Assembly (NCBI GenBank): GCA_965279035.1
Contig: OZ257142.1
Location: forward strand, 3,776,001 to 3,840,000
Direction of reading: 5' to 3'
Source of the DNA: Bacteroidia bacterium
GTDB taxonomy: Bacteria; Bacteroidota; Bacteroidia; M30B66
Length of the DNA: 64,000 bases
Made by a program: the position numbers and the translations under genes. Positions 4,374 through 22,159 of the stretch are shown one piece after another; position 1 is the stretch's first letter; every line of letters starts with the position of its first letter. The notes under the pieces are model-generated. The model was given only the letters and a program-made list of their open reading frames with translations. It was not told the DNA's origin and ran no database searches.

Positions 4374-6257
4374 ATGGCTGAAAATACAGATAGCACATAC
4401 AACGACGATTCCATTAAATCCCTCGACTGGAAGGAACATATCCGCCTCCGTCCTGGGATGTATATTGGGAAATTGGGCGATGGTTCTTCGCTCGATGACG
4501 GGATTTATGTATTGCTGAAAGAATCAATCGATAACTGCATCGACGAATACGTAATGGGTTTCGGGAAGAAAATCGAAATCACCATTAAAGATCGCATGGT
4601 ACGTGTGCGCGACTACGGACGAGGTATTCCGCTCGGTAAAGTGGTCGATGTAGTGTCGAAAATCAACACGGGTGCGAAGTACGATTCGGTAGCTTTTAAG
4701 AAATCGGTTGGTTTGAACGGTGTCGGAACCAAGGCGGTGAATGCACTTTCGAGCTATTTCAAGGTGCAATCGGTACGTGATGGGAAAATGAAAATGGCGG
4801 AGTTTGAGAAAGGAAATCTCACCAACGAAACCGCTGTTACCGATACCAACGATAACAAAGGAACACTTGTTCAGTTTTTTCCGGATGAAGCCATATTCGG
4901 AAACTACAAGTTCATCAGCGAATACGTAGAGAAAATGCTCTGGAATTATGCTTACCTCAACACAGGTTTGAGCATACATTTCAACGGACAAGTGTTTAAG
5001 TCGGAACGTGGATTATACGATCTACTAGAGCAAAACCTCAGTGGAGAACCGCTTTATCCGATTATTCATCTGCGTGGCGAGGACATTGAAATTGCCATGA
5101 CGCATGGTAACCAGTACAGCGAAGAATATTATTCGTTTGTCAATGGTCAGCATACAACCCAAGGTGGGACACACCAAGCAGCATTGCGCGAAGCGGTTGT
5201 GAAGGTGATTCGTGAATTCTACAAGAAAGATTTCGATGCGAATGATGTGCGTCAATCCATCATTGTTGCCATCAGTGTGAAAGTAGTTGAGCCGGTGTTC
5301 GAAAGTCAGACTAAGACCAAACTCGGTTCTCAAAACATCGCTCCCGATGGACCTGCCATTCGTACGTTCGTTATTGATTTCCTCAAAAAAGAACTCGATA
5401 ACTACCTACACAAGCATGCCGATGTTGCTGAAGCATTGTTGCATAAAATTCTACAGAGCGAAAAGGAGCGGAAAGAACTCAGCGGTATTCGTAAGCTGGC
5501 ACGTGAGCGCGCTAAGAAAGTAAGTCTACACAACAAGAAACTCCGTGATTGTCGGGTACATTACAACAGCAACCACGCAGTTCGTCTCGATACAACACTC
5601 TTTATTACCGAGGGAGATTCGGCATCTGGTTCCATTACCAAAAGCCGCGATGTGAATACACAAGCCGTATTCAGCTTGAAAGGGAAACCACTCAACTGTT
5701 ATGGTTTGACCAAGAAAATCGTTTACGAAAACGAAGAATTCAATCTCTTGCAAAGTGCCCTCAATATTGAGGATGGCATGGACGATTTGCGTTACAACAA
5801 CATTGTAATTGCTACCGATGCCGACGTCGATGGGATGCACATTCGTTTGTTGATGATTACGTTTTTCTTGCAATTTTTCCCCGATTTGGTGAAGAACGGT
5901 CACTTGTACATTTTGCAAACGCCGCTATTCCGTGTGCGTAATAAGAAAGACACGTATTACTGTTATTCCGAAGACGAGCGTCGCGAAGCCATTGTGAAGG
6001 TAGGCAAGAACCCCGAGATTACCCGATTCAAGGGATTGGGAGAGATTTCGCCAGACGAGTTCAAGCATTTTATTGGAAAGGACATTCGCCTCGAACCAGT
6101 GATTTTTAAACGTGAGGAGAACCTTCCGCAACTACTCGAATTCTATATGGGTAAAAACACACCCGATCGTCAGCTTTTCATCATTGATAATCTCAAGGTT
6201 GAGAAGGATTTGGTGGAAGAAGAAAAAGCCGCTCCTGTTGCTGAAATCGAAGAATAA
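4374..6257 (+). CDS. parE: DNA topoisomerase IV subunit B
   Basis: [16 protein letters not shown] ATPase motifs, EGDSA, DADVDG and RFKGLGE; short 627-aa Bacteroidota ParE-type sequence. Confidence 0.88.
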
Positions 6258-6290
6258 AATAACACCTGATAACTAAAACTTAAGTTTACC

Positions 6291-7075
6291 CTACAGCATC
6301 CCCGGATTTCAATCCGGGTTTTTTTGTAGAAGTTAACCTGAAACTCTTTATTTACCCTGCAAGTTCCCCGGATTGAAATCCGGGGGTGCCGAAATGTAGA
6401 AGCTGAGATACGTTGAAGTTGAACAACACTCTTTAGATTTCAAAAGAAGGTGGAGGAGGTTATAGTAGAAAAGAAAAAAGCCACTCTTGTATCGACATTT
6501 GAAGTATAACCTACAGCATCCCCGGATTGAAATCCGGGGTTTTTTGTAGAAGTTAAACTGAAACTCTTTATTTACCCTGCAAGTTCCCCGGATTGAAATC
6601 CGGGGGTGCCGAAATGTAGAAGCTGAGATACGTTGAAGTTGATCACTCTGCTTCTGATTTCTAAAGTTGAAATCCGGGGGTGCTAGAATGCCGATGCTGA
6701 GATACGTTGAAGTTGAACAACACTCTTTAGATTTCAAAAGAAGGTGGAGGAGGTTATAGTAGAAAAGAAAAAAGCCACTCTTGTATCGACATTTGAAGTA
6801 TAACCTACAGCATCCCCGGATTTCAATCCGGGGTTTTTTGTAGAAGTTAACCTGAAACTCTTTAGTTACCCTGCAAATTCCCCGGATTGAAATCCGGGGG
6901 TGCCGAAATGTAGAAGCTGAGATACGTTGAAGTTGATCACTCTGCTTCTGATTTCTAAAGTTGAAATCCGGGGGTGCCGAAATGTAGAAGCTGAGATACG
7001 TTGAAGTTGATCACTCTGACTCAGATTTCTAAAGTTGAAATCCGGGGGTGCTAGAATGCCAAAGCTGAGTTACGT
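6291..7075. repeat. BIME-like mosaic array of REP palindromes CCCCGGATT(TC/GA)AATCCGGGG with repeated linkers
   Basis: About 6 full and 3 half palindromes; the linker gctgagatacgttgaagttga is repeated 5 times; there is a ~297-bp internal duplication. Confidence 0.85.
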
Positions 7076-7352
7076 AGTAGAAGAACACTCCGCTAGGAGA
7101 TACGAGTGTTTAGTTTTGGAAACTCGGAAAAACTAAAAACGTGTCCTTTGAGGCTTTAAATGGAAGTTCTTAGTCCTTCGATTTGATTGATATTTCTTTG
7201 CAAATCACTCTAATTAGAAAAATAAACTATCCATTTCTAGCAATTCGCTTTTTTCTTACTTCCGAAATTGAAGATTAGAAATTAATATTCTTTAGAGAAT
7301 ACCCGTTTTTAAAAGCATTTAGAAAATCAAAAGTTCGCAAAAAGGTTTCTTC

Positions 7353-7414
7353 TTACATCTGTAATGAAGAGTGATTCTGAGGTAATGGAATAGGCAACCG
7401 CTTTTTGCCTTTTG
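7353..7414 (+). promoter_or_regulatory. Putative operator TTACA-TC-TGTAA plus degenerate -7 box (GCCTTTTG) for cassette 1
   Basis: Palindrome 7353-7364; 8-mer ending in TTTG at 7407-7414 with the same 42-nt gap as the three other sites. Confidence 0.6.
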
Positions 7415-7441
7415 TCGTTGAGCAATCCAAAACCTTATCCT

Positions 7442-7945
7442 ATGGGAAACCTCAACGTTTTTCTATCATTTAATCGCCTTATAAAAATCGGATTCATTGG
7501 AGCCGGTCTTTTACTATTCGGCAATACGTCTCAGGCTCAAACGCCACAGACATTTAAAGTTGTTCCGCCATCAGAAGCAAAACCGCTTTTGAAAGATACG
7601 GTGGACAATTTCCTATCCTTTTCACCAGTATATGTAGAAGGCAAAACCTATTTACGTTGGTTGGTTGAGAACGATAAGAAAGACGGCGTTTTCATTGTGG
7701 AACGTTCGGCCGATGGCGAGAAGTTCGATGCACTTGGTTTTAAAGACCGAGTGGGAACAGACAAAAGTGTCAATTTGTTTTATTCCTGGGTGGATGATGC
7801 TCCTCCTGCAGGCGCTGCACATTACCGTATTATGCAGGTAGGTGTAGATCACACATTTAACTACTCCGATGTAGTGCGTGTGAAAACTGCTGCAGCAGCA
7901 TCAACGGGTGGTAGCGCAAGCTCTACGCCTGAACAAGGTAAATAA
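7442..7945 (+). CDS. Small secreted stand-alone Ig/FN3-like protein, cassette copy A1
   Basis: Signal peptide ending AQA-like; SFSPVY..GKT..RWLV.ND.KDG.F.VERS core shared with A2 and A3; ATG at 7442 preferred. Confidence 0.8.
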   Translation: MGNLNVFLSFNRLIKIGFIGAGLLLFGNTSQAQTPQTFKVVPPSEAKPLLKDTVDNFLSFSPVYVEGKTYLRWLVENDKKDGVFIVERSADGEKFDALGFKDRVGTDKSVNLFYSWVDDAPPAGAAHYRIMQVGVDHTFNYSDVVRVKTAAAASTGGSASSTPEQGK

Positions 7946-7965
7946 TCCCACAAAATCCAACCAGC

Positions 7966-9735
7966 ATGAAACAACGTTTACGTTTAGGTAATCGTCTGAA
8001 TAACCGACTGCGCGCTCGATTGAGAGCAACAGCTATGGTTTTCACGATAGGCGCTCTGGTAGCAAGCATCTTCTTTTTGTATGAGTTTATCGGGAATGTA
8101 ACAACAGGCCGAGCTCAGAAATTGGAAGAACAGCTTCACCCAAAAGCAGGCGTAATGGAAGGATTTGCTGGGCGGAAAAAAATCAGCATTCATCCTGAAA
8201 AACTTCCCAAAGGAGAAACATTAAAACAATTTACTGTACTAGTTAGCCTTCGTTTGGATGAGCTAAAACTGGCAGCAGATGGTGGAATGGTTTCAGGTCG
8301 TGATGGTGAAGATATCGTGTTTACAGCCATCGACGGAACTACCATTTTACCATTTCAAATTGAACGTTTCGAACCAGCTAGCGGAAAACTTCTTGCTTGG
8401 GTGCGATGCGAAGAACTGAGTGCTCAACAAAATGAATTCTATCTGTATTATGGAAAATCGGAAGCTGTAAGTGAAGCTTCTAAAAATACGTTTGCTGATC
8501 CGTATCGTGCGGTATGGCATTTCAACCGTGGATTTCAAACCGACGGACCAAATCCTTTAGCGGGTGAATATCACGGTGTGAAAGATGAAGAAGGTCGATT
8601 TGCTGCTGCGAAAGATTTTCTCGCCTTCGAACAAGGACAAGCAGCTTTCGAAAAAAATGAAGAATTGAATTTCTCTGGAGATATTTCAGTATCGGCTTGG
8701 GTAAAAACAAGGGGAAGCGCATTCGACCAAACAGTCATTTCGAATCTTTCTCAAAATGGAGGATTTAGTTTATGGATTGATGATGAAAATCGTCCTGTAT
8801 TTGAAATTGCGAATACATCAGGTAAGGTTGTCACATTGAATAAATCGAAAGGTGGAAACCCTTTAGAAAAAGATACCTGGTACCAACTTACGGGTGTGTA
8901 TTCTGCAAAATCTGATTCCCTCTTACTGTATGTGAATGGAAAAGTAGATCGCAGTATGAAAGCTGGATTGGCTTATGCAGCTGGAGATCGTATAAATATT
9001 GGTGTTGCTCCAGATCAGGAAAGCAGCTTCTTTAATGGAATTATTGATGAAGTTCGGATTGCTGCAAAAGCTTTATCAGAAATAGAAGTAGCAACAACAT
9101 GGATTTCAGAATCTGATCCTGAAAGCTTTTTCAGTATTGATGGGAAGGAAGTATTTAGTGCATCGCCACGCATTGTGCAATATGGTGCTTTGGAAGTGAA
9201 AGAAAATTCTGGACATGTTGTACTTAACTGGCAAACGACCAAAGAGAATAACCTCGATTTTTTCAACCTAGAACGCTCATCCGACGGAGTTCATTTTACA
9301 AAAGTAGCCTCCAAACTTGGCGCTGGAAACTCGGAAGAAACACGCAATTATTTTCTGATAGATCCTTCTCCCATTTATGGAGAAACCATTTATCGTATAC
9401 GTTCAACAAGCTTTAAAGGCGAAAGCGATGTGAGTCGTTTGTTGAATGTCCATGTGGATGCGCCTGCTACAGCTCTAGGAATTCGTAGCGTAGAACCCAA
9501 TCCATTTAAAGAGCAGTTTGCTGTAACCTATCGTTCGATGAGCGAAACAGCCATTCAAGTAAAACTAACAAGCATCAGCGGACAAGTGGTTCATTCCACT
9601 TCCATCGACCCGAAAACGAATATCGACAACCTGTTCGAATTTAAAGAAACAGCTGCATTGCGTCCAGGCATTTACTTTCTGAGTTTGACTCAAGCGGATG
9701 AACAAAAAACAGTAAAACTGATCAAACAACTCTGA
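7966..9735 (+). CDS. DUF2341 + LamG/ConA-like + Ig-like + T9SS type A CTD protein, copy B1
   Basis: DIVFT..DG...L..IE.....G.L.AWV...YLYYG (DUF2341-like); FNGIIDEVRI (LamG); PNPF...PGIYFL...KLIK (CTD). Confidence 0.8.
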   Translation: MKQRLRLGNRLNNRLRARLRATAMVFTIGALVASIFFLYEFIGNVTTGRAQKLEEQLHPKAGVMEGFAGRKKISIHPEKLPKGETLKQFTVLVSLRLDELKLAADGGMVSGRDGEDIVFTAIDGTTILPFQIERFEPASGKLLAWVRCEELSAQQNEFYLYYGKSEAVSEASKNTFADPYRAVWHFNRGFQTDGPNPLAGEYHGVKDEEGRFAAAKDFLAFEQGQAAFEKNEELNFSGDISVSAWVKTRGSAFDQTVISNLSQNGGFSLWIDDENRPVFEIANTSGKVVTLNKSKGGNPLEKDTWYQLTGVYSAKSDSLLLYVNGKVDRSMKAGLAYAAGDRINIGVAPDQESSFFNGIIDEVRIAAKALSEIEVATTWISESDPESFFSIDGKEVFSASPRIVQYGALEVKENSGHVVLNWQTTKENNLDFFNLERSSDGVHFTKVASKLGAGNSEETRNYFLIDPSPIYGETIYRIRSTSFKGESDVSRLLNVHVDAPATALGIRSVEPNPFKEQFAVTYRSMSETAIQVKLTSISGQVVHSTSIDPKTNIDNLFEFKETAALRPGIYFLSLTQADEQKTVKLIKQL

Positions 9736-9875
9736 TTTGTCAAAAAATCGAAGATGCACGATCAAATCACTAAAAACTTACAAATAAAAACAACAATAAC
9801 CTCCTTGTAAAGCGATCAAAACTCAGGGCTGACAGGCATAGCAGAAAGAAAGAGAAAGCACATCCACACAATAAC

Positions 9876-9937
9876 TTACATGTGTAATGCAGCGAATCAC
9901 CTTCGGAATTCTACCCCAAACACCGCCGATATCTTTG
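9876..9937 (+). promoter_or_regulatory. Putative operator TTACA-TG-TGTAA plus Bacteroidota -7 box TATCTTTG for cassette 2
   Basis: Palindrome 9876-9887; TATCTTTG at 9930-9937 followed by ACGTA. Confidence 0.7.
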
Positions 9938-9963
9938 ACGTAAGCAATTGAAAAACACACACT

Positions 9964-10455
9964 ATGAAACGTAATTACTTTTTTTCTTCTTTGATCGCAG
10001 GGCTTGTAATGCTCTTGGCAGGATTTCAAGTAGAAGCCCAAACAGTTTCACATACAGGTTCAGCCTTATTAAATAAGAATTCCTTAAAGCAGGATTCTGC
10101 CAATACGTTTATTTCATTTTCACCAGTATATCTCGATGGGAAAACCTACGTTCGCTGGCTAGTGAAGAACGATAAGAAAGACGGCGTTTTCGTTGTAGAA
10201 CGTTCTGAAAATGGAACTGATTTCGAAGCTCTTGGATTCCGCGACCGTGTAGGAACTCAATTATTAGTCAACCTCTTTTATTCATTCGTCGACGAAGAAC
10301 CTCTTCCGGGTGATAATCATTATCGTGTGATGCAAGTAGGTGCTGATAATACATATCGCTATAGTTCAGTAGTAAAAGTTCATACACCAATTGAACCGCG
10401 TCAGGTTGGATCATCAGCCAATGCCGACGCACCAGTTCCAGCACCAACTAAATAA
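9964..10455 (+). CDS. Small secreted stand-alone Ig/FN3-like protein, copy A2
   Basis: Signal peptide (VEA-Q); core nearly identical in motif to A1 and A3. Confidence 0.8.
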   Translation: MKRNYFFSSLIAGLVMLLAGFQVEAQTVSHTGSALLNKNSLKQDSANTFISFSPVYLDGKTYVRWLVKNDKKDGVFVVERSENGTDFEALGFRDRVGTQLLVNLFYSFVDEEPLPGDNHYRVMQVGADNTYRYSSVVKVHTPIEPRQVGSSANADAPVPAPTK

Positions 10456-10478
10456 TTCCACCATCAACCTCTTTTCAT

Positions 10479-12239
10479 ATGAAAAAGCGTTCTACTAAAT
10501 TAGTAACCAAGGTAAAAACTAAGGTAAGACTACAGCATCGTTTGCGTTTTGTAGCGGTGGCAGGTGCATTTGCACTAGGAGTTTTCTCTGTTGCATTACT
10601 TTACAATACCATTGGAACAAGTAATCAATCGATTGCCAACAATAAATTCAATGGAGTTGAAACACTAGCTGAATATAAATTCAGAAAGCAACTCAATTTG
10701 GATGCTTCACAACTTCCTGCGGGAGAAGCTCTAAAAGATTTTCCGGTGATGGTAAACATCAAGGACGATGATTTACGTTCGGCTTCAAACGGAGGAAAAG
10801 TAGTGAGCGAAAAAGGAGCTGATATTCGCTTTACCAAAGCCGATGGAGTTAGCTTACTCGACTACGAAATTGAGTCGTACAATGCCGTTACAGGTGAGTT
10901 GATTGCCTGGGTGAAATTGGATGCTATCAGCGATAAAAAAGCTGAACCAGTATTCCTTTATTTCAGCAATAAGTTTGCGGCCGACGAAAGTTCTCAAAAT
11001 GCTTGGAACAAAACCTACAAAGGTGTTTGGCATTTGAAAGGAGCTTTAAACTCAAAGATTCCTCATTCAAATCAATATTCTCAAGAAGTTAAAACAGACG
11101 GAAGTAAAGAAGTGTATGTTGCTGCAGAGAAAAACTCTAGTCAGTATGCTTGCTTGAATACTCCCGAAGATGTTGATATTACTGGCGACATAACACTTTC
11201 AGCTTGGGTATACATTACTGATAAGAAAGAACAAACGATTATTTCCAATCAAAGTGGATTTAATGGTGGATATCGTTTAGGAATTAACAAAGATCATCGT
11301 GTTGAATTCCAGGTTCGGAATCAAAATGCAGAGCCGGCTTCTATCGAAGGAAAAGAAGGTACCGAGTTAATGAAAGAACAATGGGTTCATGTTGCAGCTG
11401 TGTATTCGGACGAAGGAGATTCGATGGCAACTTACATTAACGGAAAGTTGGAGCGCTCCATCAAAACGGATATCAGCATGGCTGGTAGTACAGAAGCACT
11501 TCAAATAGGCAGAGAACCTTCTCGTAAAATTTTCTATTTCGGTGGAAAAATGGATGAAGTTCATATTAGCAATATTGCTCGCAGTACCGCTTGGTTGAAT
11601 GCTGAATATGCAAGTCAACTGAAGCCAAAAGAATTCTTGAAAGCAGGAGTTACTGAAGCGATCGTTCAACAAATTTCAATGAGTTTACTCACGTTCGACG
11701 GTGAAGCTCAAGGCAGCACCGTTGAATTAAAATGGCTCACCGCGATGGAAATTGAGAATGATCTTTTCACAATTGAGCGTTCATCCGACGGAGTAAATTT
11801 CGCATCCATTGGAACAAAACCAGGAGCTGGAAACAGCAATGAAGTGTTGAGTTATAGCTATCGCGATAACAAACCTTTGATAGGAACCAATTACTACCGA
11901 GTAAAACTAACAGGTGCCACAGGTGAAGAGTATTCGATGATTACTCCAGTAAATGTTGAATCGGCTGGAGAAGAAGATATCCGTATATCGGCAGCACAAC
12001 CCAATCCTTTTGTAAAAGACTTTAAAGTTGACTATGTAGTTCCCAAAAGCGGAATTGCTAAAGTAAAACTGATGAGTGTAACAGGCGAAGTGGTAATGGA
12101 AGAAGAAGTTACTTGTGAAAAAGCATCCCCACGTCAATTCATTTTTAAAGATGATCAAGGATTAAAGCCTGGCGTGTATTTCTTCAGCGTTGCTCAACAA
12201 GAAGAAACCAAAATGGTGAAACTCATCAAACGAATTTAA
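10479..12239 (+). CDS. DUF2341 + LamG + Ig-like + T9SS type A CTD protein, copy B2
   Basis: DFPVMV, DIRFTKADG, GELIAWV; FGGKMDEVHIS; ERSSDG...NYYRV; PNPF...PGVYF...KLIK. Confidence 0.8.
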   Translation: MKKRSTKLVTKVKTKVRLQHRLRFVAVAGAFALGVFSVALLYNTIGTSNQSIANNKFNGVETLAEYKFRKQLNLDASQLPAGEALKDFPVMVNIKDDDLRSASNGGKVVSEKGADIRFTKADGVSLLDYEIESYNAVTGELIAWVKLDAISDKKAEPVFLYFSNKFAADESSQNAWNKTYKGVWHLKGALNSKIPHSNQYSQEVKTDGSKEVYVAAEKNSSQYACLNTPEDVDITGDITLSAWVYITDKKEQTIISNQSGFNGGYRLGINKDHRVEFQVRNQNAEPASIEGKEGTELMKEQWVHVAAVYSDEGDSMATYINGKLERSIKTDISMAGSTEALQIGREPSRKIFYFGGKMDEVHISNIARSTAWLNAEYASQLKPKEFLKAGVTEAIVQQISMSLLTFDGEAQGSTVELKWLTAMEIENDLFTIERSSDGVNFASIGTKPGAGNSNEVLSYSYRDNKPLIGTNYYRVKLTGATGEEYSMITPVNVESAGEEDIRISAAQPNPFVKDFKVDYVVPKSGIAKVKLMSVTGEVVMEEEVTCEKASPRQFIFKDDQGLKPGVYFFSVAQQEETKMVKLIKRI

Positions 12240-12263
12240 AATCAACCCTAACCTCAACTTTGG

Positions 12264-12298
12264 AAACCCCGACGATCAAATTCGCTCGGGGTTTTTTT
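12264..12298 (+). terminator. Intrinsic terminator after cassette 2
   Basis: aaaccccga...tcggggttt hairpin plus T tract. Confidence 0.75.
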
Positions 12299-12474
12299 AT
12301 GGTCGTATGCAGAATTTGAGATTTTTTTAGTGAAATCAAATCAATCATTCATTGGAGCGTAAAAACTTACGTTTTAGGAATTTGATTTTTTGAGAGGATG
12401 ATTTCTACAATCCTTCGCTGATAAGGGATTCCGAAATAAAAAAAGCGGTATTGTGCCGCATACAAACTATTTTC

Positions 12475-12536
12475 TTACACCTGTAGCGGACCTGCTTCAA
12501 ACGGACAAACACAGGGCAACGTCCGATATAGCTTTA
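12475..12536 (+). promoter_or_regulatory. Putative operator TTACA-CC-TGTAG plus -7-like box TAGCTTTA for cassette 3
   Basis: Near-palindrome 12475-12486; box at 12529-12536 with the same 42-nt gap, running into CGTA. Confidence 0.6.
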
Positions 12537-12579
12537 CGTATCAAATAGAACATTCTACGGCCCTAACCTGAGATACCAT

Positions 12580-13071
12580 ATGAAACCCGACCATTCGAAT
12601 ACACCCAAAACCATTGTGCGAGGATCCTTAGCAGCATTGCTTCTAGCATTCGGAGGATTATCGGCCGAAGCCCAAACGAAAATGGGCAAAGGTCTCACGG
12701 GTAGCGCACAATTAAAACCCGATGATCAAAATGCGATTTCCTCGTTTTCGCCCGTCTATAATAACGGAAAAACGTTTATCCGATGGCTAGTTACAAACGA
12801 TGAAAAAGACGGGATTTTTATCGTTGAACGCTCTGCCGATGGTACTGAATTCGAAGCATTAGGCTTTAAAGATCGTGTAGGCTCGCCCCTGTGTGTGAAC
12901 TTGTTTTACTCCTTCATCGATGAAGCACCTATTGCCGGACAAAGCTACTACCGCATCATGTCGGTAGGTACAGATCAAACCTATACATACAGCGACGTTG
13001 TTCGAGTACGAACCGATGTTCAATCCAATACACCACCGACCAATAGTGCTTCAAACGAAAATGGACAATAA
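12580..13071 (+). CDS. Small secreted stand-alone Ig/FN3-like protein, copy A3
   Basis: Signal peptide (AEA-Q); conserved ALGFKDRVG....VNLFYSF.D core. Confidence 0.8.
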   Translation: MKPDHSNTPKTIVRGSLAALLLAFGGLSAEAQTKMGKGLTGSAQLKPDDQNAISSFSPVYNNGKTFIRWLVTNDEKDGIFIVERSADGTEFEALGFKDRVGSPLCVNLFYSFIDEAPIAGQSYYRIMSVGTDQTYTYSDVVRVRTDVQSNTPPTNSASNENGQ

Positions 13072-13092
13072 TTAAGCTTGAAACTTCCTTCC

Positions 13093-13125
13093 TCAGGCGT
13101 CGTATCAACTAAATCCGACGCCTGA
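13093..13125 (+). other. Intercistronic 10-bp perfect hairpin without a U tract
   Basis: TCAGGCGTCG-13 nt-CGACGCCTGA between A3 and B3. Confidence 0.6.
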
Positions 13126-13162
13126 TGATTGCTTTTTAGATGGCTAGAATCTTTTGCTATTA

Positions 13163-14545
13163 ATGAAACGAAAACTACAACTCCGTACAAAAACCAAAGT
13201 CAAGCTGAGAACTTCGGTCAAGCTGGCATATGCAGGTGCGGCTTTGTCGTTGATGCTCATTGGTGGATGGTTAATCTATTCCAATTTCGGAACTTCAACC
13301 GATAGTATCGCCAGTAACGAATCAACATTACCTGATTTCAGTTGGAGACGTAAAATCAGTTTTGGGAAGGAATTAATCAAAGGCAACGAAACGCTGTTGA
13401 ATTTTCCAATGTTGGTACAACTCAGCGATCCAGATTTCAAATCGGTTGCAAATGGCGGAAAAGTTATTCATCCCAAAGGCTATGATTTTCGTTTCACCAA
13501 AGCCGATGGAATATCCATTTTCCCAACTCAAATAGATCATTACAATCCCAAAACAGGTGAAATTTCTGCTTGGGTTTTACTCGATACTTTATCAGAAAAA
13601 AGCTCAAACGAGTTATTCGTTTATTACAGTAATGCAACTATTCGAACTGAATTGCCCACCGTTTTATGGAACGATTCATTTCGCGGAATGTGGCACATGA
13701 ACGATTTGCATGCTTCCAACAACCGTAAACTACGCGCTACCATTCAAGGAACAGCCGAAGCAACAGGTAAAATTGGTTCTGCTCGATTGTTTGATGCAGC
13801 TCGTCAAGACGCTGCTTTCTTTCCATACGTGGAGGAAATTGATTTAAAAGCTGATTTCAGTTTATCGGCTTGGGTGTATTTGAATGAAAGTGGTCGTGAA
13901 CAAGTGATTCTTTCAAATCAGGGCGATCGTCCGGGTGGATATCGTTTGTTTATTGATAAGGAGAATAAAGTGTGTGTCGACTATTTGAATGCTGCTGGCA
14001 AACGAATTTCTACAGCCAATGTGAGTGGTGGTGAAACGCTTGAGAAAGCACGTTGGTATTATCTTGCAGCTACTTATTCTGTTAAAGAGAATATGGTTCA
14101 CACGTATGTGGATGGCTTATTAGATCGCAGTATTATATCGCTAGATGCTCCAGGAAACACGGCTTCGGTTTTACAAATTGGACGAGATCTTTTTCAAGAG
14201 AAATCCTATTTCAACGGAATCATTGATGAAATTCGCATTTCTTCACAGGCACATTCTCAAGCATGGATTGCTACTGAATTGTACAATCAGAATGTTGGAA
14301 AACTCTTGTTCACCTTAGGAAATGCCGAAGAACTTTCGCTCGATTTAGCTTCTGTAAAACGGAATAAAGAAGGTTTGAATAATCAAAACGCAGCAAGTCA
14401 AACTCAACAAGAAAAAGCCAATACCTTGCGTGCACAAAAATCTCCATCTACTGGAGAAGCGCCGTCAACCTTGACAAGTAGCACAGAAGCTATTCAAGCA
14501 AGAATGAATTCGATTCGCCGCGTGGCGAAAGAAAATAGCAAGTAA
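13163..14545 (+). CDS. DUF2341 + LamG protein lacking Ig and CTD, with a Q/N/S-rich helical tail, copy B3
   Basis: NFPMLV, DFRFTKADG, FNGIIDEIRIS; no PNP/GIY CTD motif; ATG at 13163. Confidence 0.75.
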   Translation: MKRKLQLRTKTKVKLRTSVKLAYAGAALSLMLIGGWLIYSNFGTSTDSIASNESTLPDFSWRRKISFGKELIKGNETLLNFPMLVQLSDPDFKSVANGGKVIHPKGYDFRFTKADGISIFPTQIDHYNPKTGEISAWVLLDTLSEKSSNELFVYYSNATIRTELPTVLWNDSFRGMWHMNDLHASNNRKLRATIQGTAEATGKIGSARLFDAARQDAAFFPYVEEIDLKADFSLSAWVYLNESGREQVILSNQGDRPGGYRLFIDKENKVCVDYLNAAGKRISTANVSGGETLEKARWYYLAATYSVKENMVHTYVDGLLDRSIISLDAPGNTASVLQIGRDLFQEKSYFNGIIDEIRISSQAHSQAWIATELYNQNVGKLLFTLGNAEELSLDLASVKRNKEGLNNQNAASQTQQEKANTLRAQKSPSTGEAPSTLTSSTEAIQARMNSIRRVAKENSK

Positions 14546-14596
14546 AATTTCTACTAAGAAATGAGAAGGGATGTATTGAAAAATGCTTCCCTTTTT

Positions 14597-15604
14597 TTAT
14601 TTGAATGAAACCGTTTTCCCAAGCCATTCGAGTGCGGTACCGTTAAGCAAACGATTTTTTTGAGATTCACTTAAATTCATGTTTTTTATCAGCGTGCCCG
14701 GAATGACTTCGCCAAGCGGAAAAGGATAATCTGAGCCCAAAGCGATGCGCTCAACTCCAGCAAAATCAATCAAAAAACGCAAGGCTGATTCATCGTGAAC
14801 AAGACTGTCGAAATACAAACGATTCAAGTATTTTTCGGGGCTGATGGCATTGTCGATAGCCACTAAATCGGGGCGACACTCGAAACCATGTTTGATACGA
14901 CCCAGTGTTAACGGAAACGAACCACCACCATGTGCAAACGCCACACGTAGCTTAGGTAATCGCTCAAAAATTCCACCGAATATCATAGAACATATTGCAC
15001 GCGAAGTTTCGGCAGGCATCCCAACTAACCAAGGCAGCCAATAGCGCTGAATGTCTTTTTGTCCAAACATTTCCCATGGATGCACAAATACAGCTGCTCC
15101 TAATTCTTCAGCAGCCTGGAATATTTCGAAGAATTCGGGTTCATTCAAATTCAGCTGATTGACATTGCTCCCAATCTGAATTCCAGCCATTCCTAATTCC
15201 TTCATGCAACGTTCCAACTCACGAATAGCCAGTTTGGGCGATTGCATCGGGATTGTTCCTAAACCAATAAATCGATCGGGATAATCGCCCACAATGCCTG
15301 CAATATGATCATTGAGAAATTCCGAAACAGCCAAGGCATCTTCGCCCTTTGCCCAATATGAAAACATCACCGGAACAGTACTTAATACCTGCATATTCAC
15401 CCCATGATGATCACATTCGTGGATTCGTGCTTTCGGATCCCAGCAATTGTTCTGCACCTCCCGAAAAAACTGATCATCCTTCATCATCCGTGCACAGCAA
15501 GGCTTGTGATGATCGAGATGAATAAAACCACCATACCCAAATCGCTCCTTGAAATTAGGAATGTGTTCGGGAAGAATATGGGTGTGGATGTCGATGGTGA
15601 ACAT
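14597..15604 (-). CDS. nbaD: 2-amino-3-carboxymuconate-6-semialdehyde decarboxylase (ACMSD, amidohydrolase)
   Basis: [25 protein letters not shown] and [11 protein letters not shown]; downstream of 3-HAO. Confidence 0.9.
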
Positions 15605-15642: not shown

Positions 15643-16623
15643 CTATGCAGCGTATTTTTTTAGATCAACATAGGGTGTTTTTCTTTTTACGACAGCAAAT
15701 ACTCTTGATACAAGTTTGTTTTTGACTGCATTGAGTGCACAATTATAATGTTTTCCTTCCTGGATTTTACGCTCCATATATTCTCTCATTTCGGTGTTAT
15801 TTAATACTGCCGAACGCGCCGCCATTGTTAATACTCCATTGATTTTTCGATTTGATCTTCTATCGGTTTGTGTTTTCCCTTTTATGGATGTTCCTGATGA
15901 TTTTTCGAATGGAGCTATTCCACTATAACATGCATATTGACGAGCATTGTCGAAGTATTCAAAGCCATTTGTTGTGGCGATTAAATACCAACTCGACACT
16001 GGTCCAACTCCTTTTATAGATTGAACTAATTCGTCGATTTGACGAAGATTATCATCTGACTTTATCAATGATTTGATTTCCTCTTCTACCAGTTTAAGTT
16101 TATCGTTAAAGGTCTTTAACAGATCCGTTTCGATTTGAAAAACTATATCTACACCAGTGGTTTTTGATGAGTTCTTAAGTCTGTTTTTGATGCCTATCTT
16201 CTCTTTTTCCAGATGCGAACGCATACTCAAGAGCTTTCTCAGCTGCGCTACAGCACTCTTTGATAGTACCGTTGGGCTAAGCTGTTCTGCATGTAATGCA
16301 ATGAAATTTGCGATTCTTTGGGAGTCTATCTTATCATTTTTGCCTCGCTGAAGTCCAATAGAATACTTAATGTTTAAGGAGGATTCCATGTAAAAACAGA
16401 TCTTCTTTTCACTCAAAAACACAGATAAATCCTCGCTATAAATACCCGTATGCTCAAAGCAAATGGCCATCGATTTTACACTCACTTTCAACTGCTTTAA
16501 CCAAGCAAGCATCAGTGTATAACCATCGATATCATTGCTAAAGACGTTGTGCTGAGATTGATTATGTAAATAAACATCCAGCGTTAATTTTGACACATCA
16601 ATGCCAATAAAGTTCTTCTTCAT
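15643..16623 (-). CDS. IS110-family DEDD transposase/recombinase
   Basis: IGIDVSK, FEHTG, KNDKIDS (DEDD RuvC-like); GVGP and APFEKSSG (Tnp20 with catalytic Ser). Confidence 0.95.
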   Translation of the reverse strand: MKKNFIGIDVSKLTLDVYLHNQSQHNVFSNDIDGYTLMLAWLKQLKVSVKSMAICFEHTGIYSEDLSVFLSEKKICFYMESSLNIKYSIGLQRGKNDKIDSQRIANFIALHAEQLSPTVLSKSAVAQLRKLLSMRSHLEKEKIGIKNRLKNSSKTTGVDIVFQIETDLLKTFNDKLKLVEEEIKSLIKSDDNLRQIDELVQSIKGVGPVSSWYLIATTNGFEYFDNARQYACYSGIAPFEKSSGTSIKGKTQTDRRSNRKINGVLTMAARSAVLNNTEMREYMERKIQEGKHYNCALNAVKNKLVSRVFAVVKRKTPYVDLKKYAA

Positions 16624-17705: not shown

Positions 17706-18494
17706 ATGGAACTAAATCTCGCAGGAAAAACAGCGCTGGTATGCGGCAGTACACAAGGAATTGGACGTGCTTGTGCCCGTGAATTGGCCGAAGCAGGTGC
17801 TCATATTGTGCTTCTAGCCCGTGACGAAACACGTTTAAAAGAGGAAAAAATCGAGCTCGATCGCATCAATCACCTCAACAACGACTACCTCGTTGCCGAT
17901 TTTAATGATTGGAGACAAGTAGAATCGGTGGTCAAAGCATTTATCGCCAAACGCAATCCCATTCATATTCTCGTGAACAACAATGGAGGTCCGGCTGCTG
18001 GTCCAATTACCGAAGCACGCCCCGAAGCATTTGAAGCGGCATTTACCCAACATCTTTTATGCAATCAGGTATTGGCTCAAGCGGTGTTGGAGGAAATGAT
18101 AAAAGCTGATTATGGTCGAATCATCAATATCATATCGACTTCGGTAAAAGCACCATTGCATGGTTTAGGAGTTTCGAATACTATCCGTGCTGCTGTGGGA
18201 AATTGGTCGAAAACCTTAGCGAATGAAGTAGGGAAATATGGCATTACAGTGAATAATGTATTGCCAGGAGCAACAATGACGGGGCGTTTGTCGCAGATTA
18301 TTACAAATAAAGCAGCAAGAACTCACCAAGAAATTGCGGTGGTAGAAGAAGAAATGTTGGCAGAAATTCCCTTGAAGCGTTTTGCCAAACCAGAAGAAAT
18401 TGCTCATGCCGTAATGTTTTTAGCTTCGTCTGCTGCTGCGTATATCAATGGTATTAATTTACCCGTTGATGGTGGAAGGACGGGGAGTTTGTGA
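17706..18494 (+). CDS. SDR family oxidoreductase
   Basis: CGSTQGIG Rossmann motif, NNNGG, VDGG. Confidence 0.9.
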   Translation: MELNLAGKTALVCGSTQGIGRACARELAEAGAHIVLLARDETRLKEEKIELDRINHLNNDYLVADFNDWRQVESVVKAFIAKRNPIHILVNNNGGPAAGPITEARPEAFEAAFTQHLLCNQVLAQAVLEEMIKADYGRIINIISTSVKAPLHGLGVSNTIRAAVGNWSKTLANEVGKYGITVNNVLPGATMTGRLSQIITNKAARTHQEIAVVEEEMLAEIPLKRFAKPEEIAHAVMFLASSAAAYINGINLPVDGGRTGSL

Positions 18495-18544
18495 TGTGCT
18501 GATGATCCCGATAGCTATCGGGAGATGTGCTGGTGTGCTGATGT
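18493..18544. repeat. Octamer repeat cluster with 18-bp palindrome
   Basis: gatgtgctgatg...TCCCGATAGCTATCGGGA...ggtgtgctgatg. Confidence 0.75.
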
Positions 18545-18648
18545 AATATATGTTTTGGTGATTTGGAAATTTGATAGCTATCGGATTGAAAATGAAACTG
18601 ACACGTAGGTTGAGTTAGAGATGATTTGAGAATTAAATAAAATATCGG

Positions 18649-19074
18649 ATGAAATTAATAAGTCATGTTTTAAATGGGTTGATCGTTTTGATTTCCACTG
18701 CAGGAAATGCACAAGGCATTGAAAAAACCTATCGTGGACAATGGGGAAGTAGTTTTTGGACCTTTGAATTTCATGAAGATAAAACCTACAAACGCACATC
18801 GGGCGGGCATTATGGAAATACGATTGTGGAAGGGAAATACAGGATATACAACGATACACTGGAAATAATAAATGGATTTGAGAATTCGAGTGGAACAATC
18901 AACCGCTATTATGTAATGGATGGGGATCGAATTATTGATTTAACACTCTTGTATGATTATACGATTGCAGAAGGGTTTCCAATCAGTTATAAGAATAAAC
19001 GAGTTCGTGTAAAAAATAAAGAAGGCGGCAAAGTTGAATACCACTATGTTCCTGAGAGTTTGTTGACCAAATAA
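18649..19074 (+). CDS. Hypothetical secreted protein
   Basis: 141-aa ORF with signal-peptide-like N-terminus, beta-rich. Confidence 0.6.
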   Translation: MKLISHVLNGLIVLISTAGNAQGIEKTYRGQWGSSFWTFEFHEDKTYKRTSGGHYGNTIVEGKYRIYNDTLEIINGFENSSGTINRYYVMDGDRIIDLTLLYDYTIAEGFPISYKNKRVRVKNKEGGKVEYHYVPESLLTK

Positions 19075-19119
19075 TTGAATTATTTTGCCGTTCTTAATTG
19101 CTAATCGAAAACATATTTC

Positions 19120-19740
19120 ATGAAAAATAGCTTACTCATTTTTTGGATATTCTTCACTTGTGCATCGTTTGCGCAAACCAGAACTCATGGTGATAGTGCT
19201 TGGTACGAAGGCCGATATCGCTCTCAAGAAGAGATGAAAGAGATTCGAAAAAAAGAAGCAAAGGAAAGATTTGAAACCTGGTTTATGCCCGGATTGGGAT
19301 ATTCGATCTATCAACCCAAGCAAAGCGATTCTACTGGAAGTTTTTCGGGATTAACGGTTGAATATCTCATTTACGCCAATGTGGATATGAACGATGATCC
19401 GGGTCCAAGTCACGTTCGTGTGTATTCGAAATTGAATATTTTAAATAGCGATCGAAAGTCGATCAACTCGATGTTTATGTATACGATTGGATTGGACTTA
19501 TCTTTAGAGAAAAACCCGAAACGACAGTTTTTAATACCCTATTTCGGATTAGAATTTGGCGGAATGTCGCAAAAGCAATTTGGTACTGGAATTCAGTTTA
19601 CACCTACGTTTGGATTGCATCTTTTGTCAAAGAAAAACATGTTTATTAACATTCACGGAGGATATATTTACCCAATCAATAATTTCGAAATGTTACAAGG
19701 ATGGTACGGTCAAGCAGGCTTGAACTTCGCACTATGGTGA
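19120..19740 (+). CDS. Probable outer-membrane beta-barrel protein
   Basis: Signal peptide, alternating beta-strand pattern, C-terminal aromatic (NFALW). Confidence 0.6.
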   Translation: MKNSLLIFWIFFTCASFAQTRTHGDSAWYEGRYRSQEEMKEIRKKEAKERFETWFMPGLGYSIYQPKQSDSTGSFSGLTVEYLIYANVDMNDDPGPSHVRVYSKLNILNSDRKSINSMFMYTIGLDLSLEKNPKRQFLIPYFGLEFGGMSQKQFGTGIQFTPTFGLHLLSKKNMFINIHGGYIYPINNFEMLQGWYGQAGLNFALW

Positions 19741-19895
19741 GAAATAAGTTGTGAATAAGGAAACATGATCATGAAATAAATAAAATCTGGATTCAATTTA
19801 AATGCAAAATGAATATGCATTTTGTTGCAATAAATATTTTAATTGCTTCGAGAAGAATATTTTCTAAGCTTAGAATTGGATAGAATACATTGAGT

Positions 19896-20324
19896 TTAAT
19901 AAACTTCCTCTTCCAATAGTTTTTCTTCTCTTTTCATTTTTCTATAGTGAAATAGTTGTTTTAATAAAGGCTGAATTAAATCTTCTCCTTTTTCGCGAAT
20001 TGCATCAGCATTTTTCGTTGTGACATTGGTAACAACTGATTGAGTAATGAATCCCAAAAGCATTCTTAATGGATTGATTGAATTCCCCCACAATGCTTTT
20101 TTAGCTAGTACTCCCGTAAGTGAACCAATAGCAAAATTGCCAATTCCATCCTTCATTTTTGGTAATTCCATGACATTTTGGAATGCTTTTTTGAGGATGT
20201 TCATAGGTTTTAATTCATCAACTATTTCTTGAAACTGAGCATTTAATTCTGTGAATTGAATATCCCGTGTCGATTCCAATTCAGTGATACGAATTTTTAA
20301 AGATTTAATTGAATCAGTTTTCAT
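19896..20324 (-). CDS. Hypothetical membrane-associated protein of the YtxH / phage-holin-like cluster
   Basis: N-terminal coiled coil and central hydrophobic segment; operon position. Confidence 0.65.
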   Translation of the reverse strand: MKTDSIKSLKIRITELESTRDIQFTELNAQFQEIVDELKPMNILKKAFQNVMELPKMKDGIGNFAIGSLTGVLAKKALWGNSINPLRMLLGFITQSVVTNVTTKNADAIREKGEDLIQPLLKQLFHYRKMKREEKLLEEEVY

Positions 20325-20386
20325 GTGACTAATTATTTAATAATTGATAAATAATTTTATTGCTAACGGGAATTTTAATAAATGAA

Positions 20387-21353
20387 TTGAATTAGTAGTT
20401 TAGTCAATATTGATTTCTTTAATAATTTAGGGCAATCAAAAGATACAATATGAATGCACAATTTAAAAGCCTTTCATTATTTGATTTTCAGGCTCAGTTT
20501 CCAAATCAAGAAAGTTGTTACGCATATTTGGCAAATTTGAAATGGTCAAATGGTTATTCCTGTCGACGATGTAAGAACAAAAACTTTTGTAAAGGCATTA
20601 GTCTTTACGAGCGGCAATGCACTGTTTGCAGGCATTTAGAATCGCCAACATCTGGAACACTGTTTCACAAATGTAAATTTTCAATTCTGAAGGCTTTTTA
20701 TATTGTTTTCTATGTATCAACTAGCAAGAAAGGAATAAGCAGTACTGAGCTAAGTAGAAAGCTTGATTTGGGGCAGAAGACTTGTTGGTTGTTTAAACAA
20801 AAGGTTATGAATGCAATGAAAAGCAGTAAGAAAAATCCAATGAAAGGGAAAGTTGATGTTGATGAAACATATGTTGGAGGACAAGATGATAAATCCATTG
20901 GAAGAAATGAAGGAAAGAAAAAAGTTGTAGTTCTAGCCATTGAAAAGAAATCAAGAGGCGTATCAAGATTCTATGGGAAAGTTGTGGCGACAGCTAACAA
21001 AAAGAATTTGAGTGAATTTATGAGGGATCATATTGCTCCCAATGCGAATGTTAGAACTGATAAATGGGCTGGATATAAAGGCTTGGAGTCTGAATTTCCG
21101 AACCTAATTCAAGAAAAGTCTGAGAAGAAAGGAAGGAATTTTAAAGAACTCCATCGAACAATAATGATGTTTAAAGCTTGGCTTAGAGGTGTCCATCATT
21201 CTGTTAGACATTTACAGCCTTATATTGATGAGTATACATATCGATTTAACAGGCATAAAATGAATGAAGGAATCTTCGAAAATCTAATGATGAGAATGGT
21301 AAAAGCAGAACCATATACTTATAAAATGATTATTGCTTAAATGACTAATTCAA
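20387..21353 (+). mobile_element. IS1595-family (ISXO2-like) insertion sequence, 967 bp
   Basis: Imperfect TIR TTGAATTAGTagTTTAgtCAATA / TATTGctTAAAtgACTAATTCAA; 8-bp TSD TAAATGAA at 20379-20386 and 21354-21361. Confidence 0.88.
20450..21340 (+). CDS. IS1595-family transposase
   Basis: N-terminal Zn ribbon (CRRC...CTVC), VDETYVGG, TDKWAGY, YIDEYTYRFNR. Confidence 0.93.
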   Translation: MNAQFKSLSLFDFQAQFPNQESCYAYLANLKWSNGYSCRRCKNKNFCKGISLYERQCTVCRHLESPTSGTLFHKCKFSILKAFYIVFYVSTSKKGISSTELSRKLDLGQKTCWLFKQKVMNAMKSSKKNPMKGKVDVDETYVGGQDDKSIGRNEGKKKVVVLAIEKKSRGVSRFYGKVVATANKKNLSEFMRDHIAPNANVRTDKWAGYKGLESEFPNLIQEKSEKKGRNFKELHRTIMMFKAWLRGVHHSVRHLQPYIDEYTYRFNRHKMNEGIFENLMMRMVKAEPYTYKMIIA

Positions 21354-21658
21354 TAAATGAATTTTTAAATATTAAAATAAAGAGTGTGACAAGCACATAG
21401 AAACAAGCAACTATAAAAAAACCATAATATAGTGTACCAAAAGCCGATCCGATCCAAATTGCAGCACCAATATTTATCATGGTTAAAACAATTAAAATGG
21501 ATACAAAAATTATAAGCCAACTAGCTAATGAAGAGAAAAGCTCCGCTGATTTTCCAATTGTTTTTAATTGTATTAATTCGACATTGGTTTTAGTATATTT
21601 TTCTCCTTTTTCAAAGAGTGATTCCATTAAAGTTGCTTGATTTTCCATGTGACATCTA

Positions 21659-22159
21659 TTATTGAACTGTATAATGAAATGTAATTGAAATACTACCATT
21701 CGTAATAGTTATGATATTATTTCCTCCCTGTGAAACAGGATTAAATGTACCAGTAGCAATTACTTCATCGGAACTTAGTAAATCAACATCAATCAATTGA
21801 TATTTCCACGTTTCATTTGTGAATTGTATATTGCTAATTGGCGTGAGTGAAGTAGCAAATACATCTGAAATTACATTGGTAGAATTATCAAATCCAGAAT
21901 TTGAATTCTTTCCGAAATTCAATTTTAAATCTGGACCTGATAAATCAATATCCCATTCTGTCCCAGCTGGATTAGTAGTAGGAACGTTGGAGATATCAAT
22001 TGTAGAAGCAAAGCGATATTGACATCCAACATTTTTCTTCGCATCAGAGTCATAATTGTTGGCTTGAATATCTGTACAGCCTTCTTTCTTTGTACAACTC
22101 GTTGTAAAAACGGTTCCAGTTGAAAGCAAAAATGCAACAATTAAATAATTTAATTTCAT
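21659..22159 (-). CDS. Putative lipoprotein
   Basis: Lipobox-like TTSC followed by KKEGCTD..A.NYD..A motif. Confidence 0.7.
   Translation of the reverse strand: MKLNYLIVAFLLSTGTVFTTSCTKKEGCTDIQANNYDSDAKKNVGCQYRFASTIDISNVPTTNPAGTEWDIDLSGPDLKLNFGKNSNSGFDNSTNVISDVFATSLTPISNIQFTNETWKYQLIDVDLLSSDEVIATGTFNPVSQGGNNIITITNGSISITFHYTVQ

Follow-up and report, generated by a model that had tools for sequence, protein, structure and literature searches.

A triplicated gene pair for a small FN3-fold protein and a DUF2341-LamG protein behind a shared upstream element in a Bacteroidia bacterium

Three copies of a two-gene unit lie side by side in the genome of a Bacteroidia bacterium (GTDB lineage Bacteria; Bacteroidota; Bacteroidia; M30B66; assembly GCA_965279035.1, contig OZ257142.1), and the question arises whether the two proteins of each unit work together or are simply encoded next to each other. 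The whole stretch of DNA that was analysed, hereafter the window, comprises 64,000 nucleotides (nt; positions 3,776,001 to 3,840,000 of the forward strand). It contains six consecutive open reading frames (ORFs) on the + strand in the order A1-B1-A2-B2-A3-B3, and these form three A-B pairs at the positions given in a preliminary description of this DNA. The A genes encode small proteins with a fibronectin type III (FN3) fold, the B genes larger proteins with a DUF2341 and a LamG domain; B1 and B2 carry a C-terminal type A sorting domain of the secretion system known as type IX (T9SS). In our judgement the chances are even that the array encodes three co-regulated units, each consisting of a lectin-like protein of the envelope with a small FN3 protein bound to it as partner. 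The six genes are:

A1, 7442..7945, + strand: small, putatively exported FN3-fold protein; the ORF opens at TTG 7412, ATG 7442 being the likelier start.
B1, 7966..9735, + strand: basic N-terminus, hydrophobic helix, DUF2341 domain, LamG domain, FN3-like domain (~9178-9480) and type A T9SS sorting domain.
A2, 9964..10455, + strand: small, putatively exported FN3-fold protein, the slowest-evolving of the three A types.
B2, 10479..12239, + strand: architecture as in B1; the FN3-like domain (~11661-11978) bears the predicted contact surface for A2.
A3, 12580..13071, + strand: small, putatively exported FN3-fold protein.
B3, 13154..14545, + strand: basic N-terminus and helix, DUF2341 and LamG domains, without the FN3-like domain and without the sorting domain.

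The later start of A1 was preferred because TTG 7412 lies upstream of a promoter-like CGT (see below) and because the homologue P0121 begins at the equivalent Met. The orthologues of B3 begin at a Met three codons into the B3 ORF. At the protein level the A copies are 48-56% identical to one another and the B copies 31-36%; as DNA, the A cores share 67-71% identity over 248 nt and are spaced 2.5-2.6 kb apart.

A scan of one genome per species yielded 30 further loci, all of them in metagenome-assembled genomes of uncultured freshwater Bacteroidota labelled Flavobacteriales, Bacteroidia, Bacteroidetes or Chitinophaga. Window and loci were counted together, with 200 nt as the largest distance allowed between an A gene and the B gene after it. 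By this measure 60 of 63 A genes had a B gene downstream (two others stood at a contig end, one lacked B), and 60 of 71 B genes had an A gene ahead (seven stood at a contig start, four lacked A). The median gap from A to B amounted to 32.5 nt, compared to 275 nt from B to A. One genome (L018/G005) carries only A2-B2-A3-B3 and lacks both A1 and B1. The tight A family was present in 12 of 400 sampled genomes of the class, a tally which includes two unpublished genomes.

For every A and every B gene the best match was its positional counterpart in other genomes, with identities to the window of 57-95% for A and 34-83% for B, A being the slower to change. When the trees were rooted with remoter relatives, each of B1, B2 and B3 formed a clade (Shimodaira-Hasegawa-like approximate likelihood ratio test, SH-aLRT, 100, 100 and 99) and together a further one (98), apart from seven other DUF2341-LamG proteins of Bacteroidia. 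A1 (94/100) and A3 (85/84) were likewise clades and A2 an unresolved grade. Since same-position genes match best and the types form clades, the triplication is older than the divergence of these genomes; neither the A nor the B tree had a resolved branching for the order of the two duplications. In 13 loci a parE/gyrB-like gene for a topoisomerase subunit B lies upstream of the array, and because the array is syntenic next to this gene, all instances are copies of one vertically inherited locus and the counts above are not independent of each other. As judged from the sequences, the A-B pairing is real and old.

What kind of protein is A? None of the three matched a Pfam family at its curated cut-off or an NCBIfam family at E <= 0.1; Pfam listed nothing but ATP-grasp_4 for A3, with 13.4 bits where 27 are required, and the Pfam family fn3 (PF00041) did not match. 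A sequence search of the PDB gave nothing below E 0.5 and a search of the ESM Atlas just unnamed Bacteroidota clusters. The AlphaFold2 (AF2) model of A2 is a complete 8-strand FN3 sandwich with a predicted local distance difference test score (pLDDT) of ~90 in the core and a disordered N-terminal stretch. Its best fold matches were FN3 domains, with a Foldseek E-value of 2.5e-4 to Ihog Fn1 and, by VIA, a Z-score of 10.8 and a root mean square deviation (rmsd) of 3.9 over 103 aligned residues. The A core also aligns with the domain that stands just ahead of the sorting domain in B1 and B2 (24-27% identity); both share the motif W, F.ERS.DG..F, G, Y..D..P..G..YR, and the A and B profiles match each other. 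Therefore, A is a stand-alone copy of a stalk module of T9SS cargo proteins. The module is widely distributed: the A profile matched 19,858 representative clusters at E <= 0.001, and 11 of 16 long proteins bearing an A-like domain carried a type A sorting domain (PF18962). A fused A-B protein of ~750 amino acids (aa) was not among the best 150 of the 19,858 matches; one protein of 2372 aa unites LamG, DUF2341 and eight A-like repeats.

All A proteins start with a hydrophobic stretch that ends in an invariant Ala-Gln, which reads as the signal peptide that had been proposed for them, and this end fits the 'Q-rule' for signal peptidase I sites of Bacteroidota as given in the accessible part of PMC10653852. 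Neither a lipobox nor a sorting domain was found in the A proteins. In the linker ahead of the FN3 core, A2 has the tripeptide D-S-A (residues ~43-46, window ~10090-10101) and A1 has D-T-V; A3 has no such tripeptide. Both fit D(S/T)(A/I/L/V/M/T), which we take to be the O-glycosylation sequon of Bacteroidota.

The domains ascribed earlier to the B proteins were all found. DUF2341 (PF10102) scored 37.7, 32.0 and 24.4 bits in B1, B2 and B3 (Pfam cut-off 23.4) and Laminin_G_3 (PF13385) 85.9, 93.4 and 85.1 bits (cut-off 27.6), so that both passed in all three proteins. The type A sorting domain TIGR04183 scored 57 bits in B1 and 29.5 bits in B2 (cut-off 23), its Pfam counterpart PF18962 42.5 and 22 bits (cut-off 27), and the domain ahead of it, previously called Ig-like, is the FN3-like domain. 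B3 had no match to a sorting domain in Pfam or NCBIfam and is not a member of the type A cargo. Its C-terminal tail is conserved among orthologues (...SAExIQARMxNIRRV...); the idea that the tail is a decayed FN3 remnant was rejected as the whole story because of this motif.

The AF2 model of B2 (mean pLDDT 70.8) comprises an N-terminal helix (21-45), a beta domain (68-162), a disordered linker (168-231), the LamG jelly roll (237-364), the FN3-like sandwich (403-493) and the sorting domain (514-584). A fold search with the whole model returned generic concanavalin-A-like jelly rolls (template modelling score 0.2-0.3, rmsd >18). Matches to clostridial neurotoxin binding domains and to a pentraxin were among them and were dismissed as evidence of kinship, since they reflect the common concanavalin-A-like fold. 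The sequence search of the PDB gave one weak match, of the LamG part to 4qvs. At the N-terminus, ~23 basic residues are followed by an 18-residue hydrophobic stretch and then by a conserved S-I-A (B2, B3) or G-R-A-Q (B1), an arrangement that may represent either a long signal peptide or an anchor in the membrane. For the T9SS machinery, GldM was searched and passed its cut-off in each of five related genomes with the array; the window itself encodes further T9SS cargo (see below). The DUF2341-LamG module itself extends to Patescibacteria, archaea, Kiritimatiellae and Nitrospirae. On their domain content the B proteins are best described as putative lectin-like proteins of the envelope, composed of DUF2341 and a jelly roll of the LamG kind, which would bind sugars.

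Furthermore, the three pairs share an upstream element. Ahead of each A gene we found a 12-bp palindrome, TTACA-N2-TGTA(A/G), followed ~30 nt on by AAC-N16/17-CGT, and in all three pairs the A start codon lies 23-41 nt after this composite element:

Pair 1 element, 7352..7418, + strand: palindrome CTTACATCTGTAA, ~30 nt, then AAC-N17-CGT.
Pair 2 element, 9875..9941, + strand: palindrome CTTACATGTGTAA, then AAC-N17-CGT overlapping TATCTTTG.
Pair 3 element, 12474..12539, + strand: CTTACACCTGTAG, then AAC-N16-CGT.

In the window the composite pattern was met three times, always ahead of an A gene, and in 100 shuffles not once, a comparison in which the pattern was derived from these same sites; independent support comes from conservation at orthologous positions. 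A relaxed pattern was searched on both strands of all 31 sequences (835,282 nt) and gave 71 matches. Of these, 59 lie before A genes (59 of 63 A genes thus have one), three before B1 genes without A1, so that the element is kept ahead of 3 of the 4 B1 genes lacking A1, two where A3 would lie past the contig end and seven elsewhere. The strict pattern had four sites in five related genomes, three at arrays and one before another secreted protein; the reversed pattern, used as control, had none in the same genomes. The one strict site outside the arrays (L120; G001:C14:48859-48925) stands just before the gene of a large secreted protein, which may belong to the same regulon as the array.

The AAC and CGT boxes at a spacing of 16-17 nt resemble promoters of extracytoplasmic function (ECF) sigma factors, whose consensus we take to be -35 AAC and -10 CGT. 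In pair 2 the -10 part overlaps a TAnnTTTG-like box; on its own, TAnnTTTG stands ahead of A2 at a distance of 27 nt and ahead of A1 at 324 nt and is absent before A3, and TTTG-N17-21-TAnnTTTG, presumably the full Bacteroidota consensus, did not occur at the array. A sigma-70 scan gave 8 promoter-like sites where 16.0 were expected and 6 terminator-like sites where 6.3 were expected, and no sigma factor gene was among the annotated ORFs of the window. The pairs had been called separately promoted: each indeed has its own copy of the element, a candidate promoter. The shared element would give the three pairs a common regulatory input, for which an ECF-type sigma factor is one candidate.

Do A and B bind each other? 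The multimer modelling that had been suggested as a check covered the A2-B2 pair: A2 (27-163) and B2 (55-586) gave a complex model with a score of 0.74, the best of three controls a score of 0.00. Among solved complexes 116 of 157 attain this mark, among mismatched pairs 2 of 215, counts which hold just roughly here since our inputs were own orthologue alignments. Between runs at least 72% of the contacts agreed, and the pLDDT of the partner was at least 71. The score is not explained by a memorised structure, because neither A2 nor B2 has a sequence relative in the PDB that could account for it. In the model, A2 strands 50-66 and 92-109 meet the first and last strands of the B2 FN3-like domain (398-407 and 486-492), and B2 residues 61-65, 124, 166 and 581 are slightly touched as well. 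The model supports binding of A2 to B2.

These findings can be joined into the following model. One ancestral A-B pair would have given rise, by two ancient duplications, to three transcription units that share one regulatory input. B1 and B2 would be exported by Sec and then probably by the T9SS, to end up at the cell surface, either displayed there or set free; B3, without stalk and sorting domain, probably stays in the envelope. A would be a Sec-exported FN3 module, each copy binding its own B as a dedicated accessory subunit, either as a periplasmic escort or stabiliser or as a passenger carried out on the stalk of B. The biological role of such units might be adhesion or glycan binding.

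More distant relatives of both proteins were examined as well. Neighbours were inspected for 28 stand-alone A-like genes of other Bacteroidia (proteins of 140-240 aa; some loci fall in two neighbour groups). Not one of the 28 stood beside a DUF2341-LamG gene. Thirteen were adjacent to giant PKD-repeat proteins (1300-2166 aa), 11 of them directly upstream of the giant; nine were next to proteins with a type A sorting domain, one of these loci belonging also to the PKD group; six had a gene for a response regulator, a PAS protein or a histidine kinase after them, and three fell in no neighbour group. The check proposed earlier, namely how often the gene downstream of A homologues encodes a DUF2341-LamG protein, thus came out positive for the tight family and negative for its distant stand-alone relatives. 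For B, 18 DUF2341-LamG loci of other Bacteroidia were collected, with ~0.9-1.4 kb of upstream DNA covered for at least nine of them; three of the 18 proteins (556-590 aa) share the architecture of B1 and B2.

Several observations weigh against three units of bound partners. The modelled contact cannot serve all three pairs, because B3 has no FN3-like domain, though A3 keeps the invariant residues of the A family; the conserved tail of B3 could be an alternative docking site for A3. A and the contacted B2 domain are homologous, and the modelled contact could be a look-alike pairing. Interface residues of A2 are conserved at 17 of 26 positions and the rest of its core at 35 of 72, a difference that is not significant and was counted by hand. 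The N-terminus of B is unlike the short signal peptides of most other DUF2341-LamG proteins of Bacteroidia, and as a membrane anchor it may fit poorly with T9SS export. The pairing, which had been called strict, holds for the 60 of 63 A genes given above and breaks at the four A-less B genes, all of the B1 type (L015, L016, L017, L021) and with no A remnant in the ~600-nt gap ahead of them, and in one genome (L020/G004), where A3 is followed by unrelated genes and a B3-like gene lies on another contig. Finally, no stand-alone A-like ORF was found in any of the 18 distant DUF2341-LamG loci. These breaks, the 0 of 28 and 0 of 18 among distant relatives, the A-family surface kept by A3 and the descent of all instances from one syntenic locus would suit the main rival reading, namely that A and B are independent exported proteins of one small regulon, co-transcribed, whose adjacency results from vertical inheritance only. 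We consider this possible but on balance not probable: a score like that of the A2-B2 model was seen in just 2 of 215 mismatched pairs, the A-to-B gaps are short in all three paralogous pairs, and the genome without both A1 and B1 is what is expected of a pair lost as a unit. The functional partnership that had been postulated is partly supported: it draws on the old pairing, the shared element and the A2-B2 model, and is weakened by the dispensability of A in places and by the vertical inheritance of a single locus.

A different partnership would be a fimbria-like fibre with A as polymerising major subunit and B as lectin tip adhesin, comparable to Tat-fimbriae or chaperone-usher pili. The layout resembles that of TafA and TafC, as far as these are described in the accessible text of PMC11821415, and the NCBIfam model for TafC (NF052521) matched the LamG part of the B proteins with E-values of 5e-6 to 2.5e-10; likewise, DUF2341 proteins have been proposed as archaeal pilus tip adhesins (PMC4858521, in the part available). 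However, the TafC matches amounted to 26-40 bits, far under the cut-off of 410, and the B proteins are not members of that family. The A model is a complete FN3 fold with no donor-strand groove visible, no usher, chaperone, sortase or pilus-assembly gene was among the annotated ORFs of the window, and A, having neither sorting domain nor lipobox, lacks any known way of crossing the outer membrane. A fibre is thus unlikely, and of the three mechanisms put forward before (chaperone and cargo, filament subunits, adaptor and adhesin) an adaptor or escort fits best, the filament being without support here. We think it very unlikely that the A proteins act in the periplasm in signalling or regulation, for instance as partners of sensors, instead of being structural partners of B. 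The six distant A-like genes followed by regulatory genes would be in line with such a role, as would the dedicated and possibly ECF-type control element ahead of the pairs; however, there is no regulator gene beside the array among the annotated ORFs of the window, the tight A family adjoins B, and the complex model favours direct contact between A and B.

The proposal of three lectin-like proteins with bound FN3 partners could be extended beyond the array. Stand-alone FN3 modules of the A family would then be a general, hitherto undescribed class of partners that bind the stalk of a neighbouring large surface protein in Bacteroidota, either guiding it to the T9SS or leaving the cell together with it. 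The array of A-B pairs would be the most clear-cut example, and the distant relatives would do likewise for the PKD giants (13 of 28) and for the sorting-domain proteins (9 of 28). We regard this extension as doubtful.

Some features of the distant loci are recorded here in their own right. The A-like gene lies directly upstream of the PKD giant in L063, L064, L066, L067, L071, L072, L073, L079, L081, L083 and L087, and its product often has a long cytoplasmic-looking N-terminus followed by a hydrophobic helix. The giants at these loci have 15-22 PKD repeats and no T9SS sorting domain by Pfam. At least nine of the 11 loci also have a conserved, divergently oriented upstream gene of 485-486 aa; two of its products were tested and matched no Pfam family. 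Six of seven giant C-termini inspected, the exception being L073, terminate in a stretch resembling the opening half of an FN3-like domain (...W..Y..W..GV.YY.IE......G.W......DG). The A-like genes followed by response-regulator, PAS or histidine-kinase genes are those of L074, L076, L077, L080, L085 and L086; in L076 and L080 the A-like gene is also preceded by the gene of a T9SS sorting-domain protein.

In the window, the surroundings of the array are ordinary: on its 5' side are the parE/gyrB-like gene for a topoisomerase and a stretch of hairpin repeats, and on its 3' side an amidohydrolase gene and an IS110 transposase gene on the opposite strand. The spacer between topoisomerase gene and array (6260-7100) is filled by 2.2 copies of a 294-nt unit (95% identity) with 74-nt sub-units, each repeat with the hairpin CCCCGGATT(G/T)(A/C)AATCCGGGG; a scan of 6200-14700 against Rfam gave a single sub-threshold match, within this repeat region. 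The IS110-family transposase gene (15643-16623, - strand) lies just beyond the downstream neighbour of the array. An IS1595-type transposase gene (20450-21340, + strand) is located in a stretch of low GC content (0.32-0.37; 18000-22000) whose ORFs have no Pfam matches and which is possibly an inserted island. The window has four additional genes for T9SS cargo, two adjacent ones of type B (CHU_C) with Ig_7 and two of type A (Por_Secre_tail), one of the latter coding for 1409 aa:

30793-33141, - strand: T9SS cargo gene.
33330-36080, - strand: T9SS cargo gene.
39184-40242, - strand: T9SS cargo gene.
57946-62175, + strand: T9SS cargo gene.

If A indeed binds B, type IX secretion or the display of proteins at the surface would gain a layer specific to the cargo, in the form of a small soluble partner that is encoded with type A cargo, retained over two duplications and equipped with a control element of its own. 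This would also offer a first handle on the DUF2341-LamG proteins, a group common in bacteria and archaea for which no tested function is on record. If binding fails, the locus would be a lineage-specific family of co-regulated lectin-like envelope proteins.

How does the array compare to known systems? The preliminary description had not recognised the pair, and no characterised family in Pfam, NCBIfam, the ESM Atlas or the accessible portions of the literature on the T9SS and DUF2341 covers it; the accessible papers on type IX secretion with LamG, periplasmic chaperones and cargo describe no such pair. DUF2341 has been linked to archaeal type IV pili, to transformation of Methanococcus and to ExbB/MotA-type proteins, and no tested function is given in the available parts of these papers (PMC4858521, PMC12505986, PMC11809585, PMC10133366). 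The proteins of archaeal type IV pilus loci and of ExbB-MotA channels share the DUF2341 domain with B, but B has neither a pilin-type N-terminus nor an ExbB/MotA domain.

Like B1 and B2, type A T9SS cargo proteins consist of a functional domain and an Ig/FN3-like stalk followed by TIGR04183/PF18962, and the stalk domain of B1 and B2 is of the same family as in many of them. In contrast to the array, no dedicated small partner gene is described for such cargo in the accessible T9SS literature; B differs further by its long, very basic N-terminus, and B3 by having neither stalk nor sorting domain. To our knowledge, T9SS cargo is held to need just its sorting domain and the shared machinery, and we know of cognate accessory genes for type B cargo only. 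An example is SprB, a type B cargo with the cognate outer-membrane PorP-family partner SprF encoded downstream. SprB/SprF and the array have a principle in common, in that next to the cargo gene lies an accessory gene dedicated to it and duplicated alongside; unlike SprF, the partner in the array is a soluble FN3 module encoded upstream of a type A cargo, and no PorP-like gene was among the annotated ORFs of the window.

In the Tat-fimbriae (twin-arginine translocation) of haloarchaea, TafC combines a TafA-like N-domain with a laminin G-like domain at the fibre tip, according to the available part of PMC11821415. TafA/TafC and the array thus both have a small beta-sandwich protein together with a protein built of beta-sandwich, linker and LamG; the former are archaeal, exported by Tat and assembled by donor strands, and none of these features was seen in the array. 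Donor-strand pilins have an incomplete Ig-like fold with a groove that is filled by a strand of the neighbour; the monomer model of A2 shows a complete sandwich with a disordered N-terminal stretch. In sum, the component domains of the array are already familiar; new are the dedicated small partner, the triplication and the pair-specific control element.

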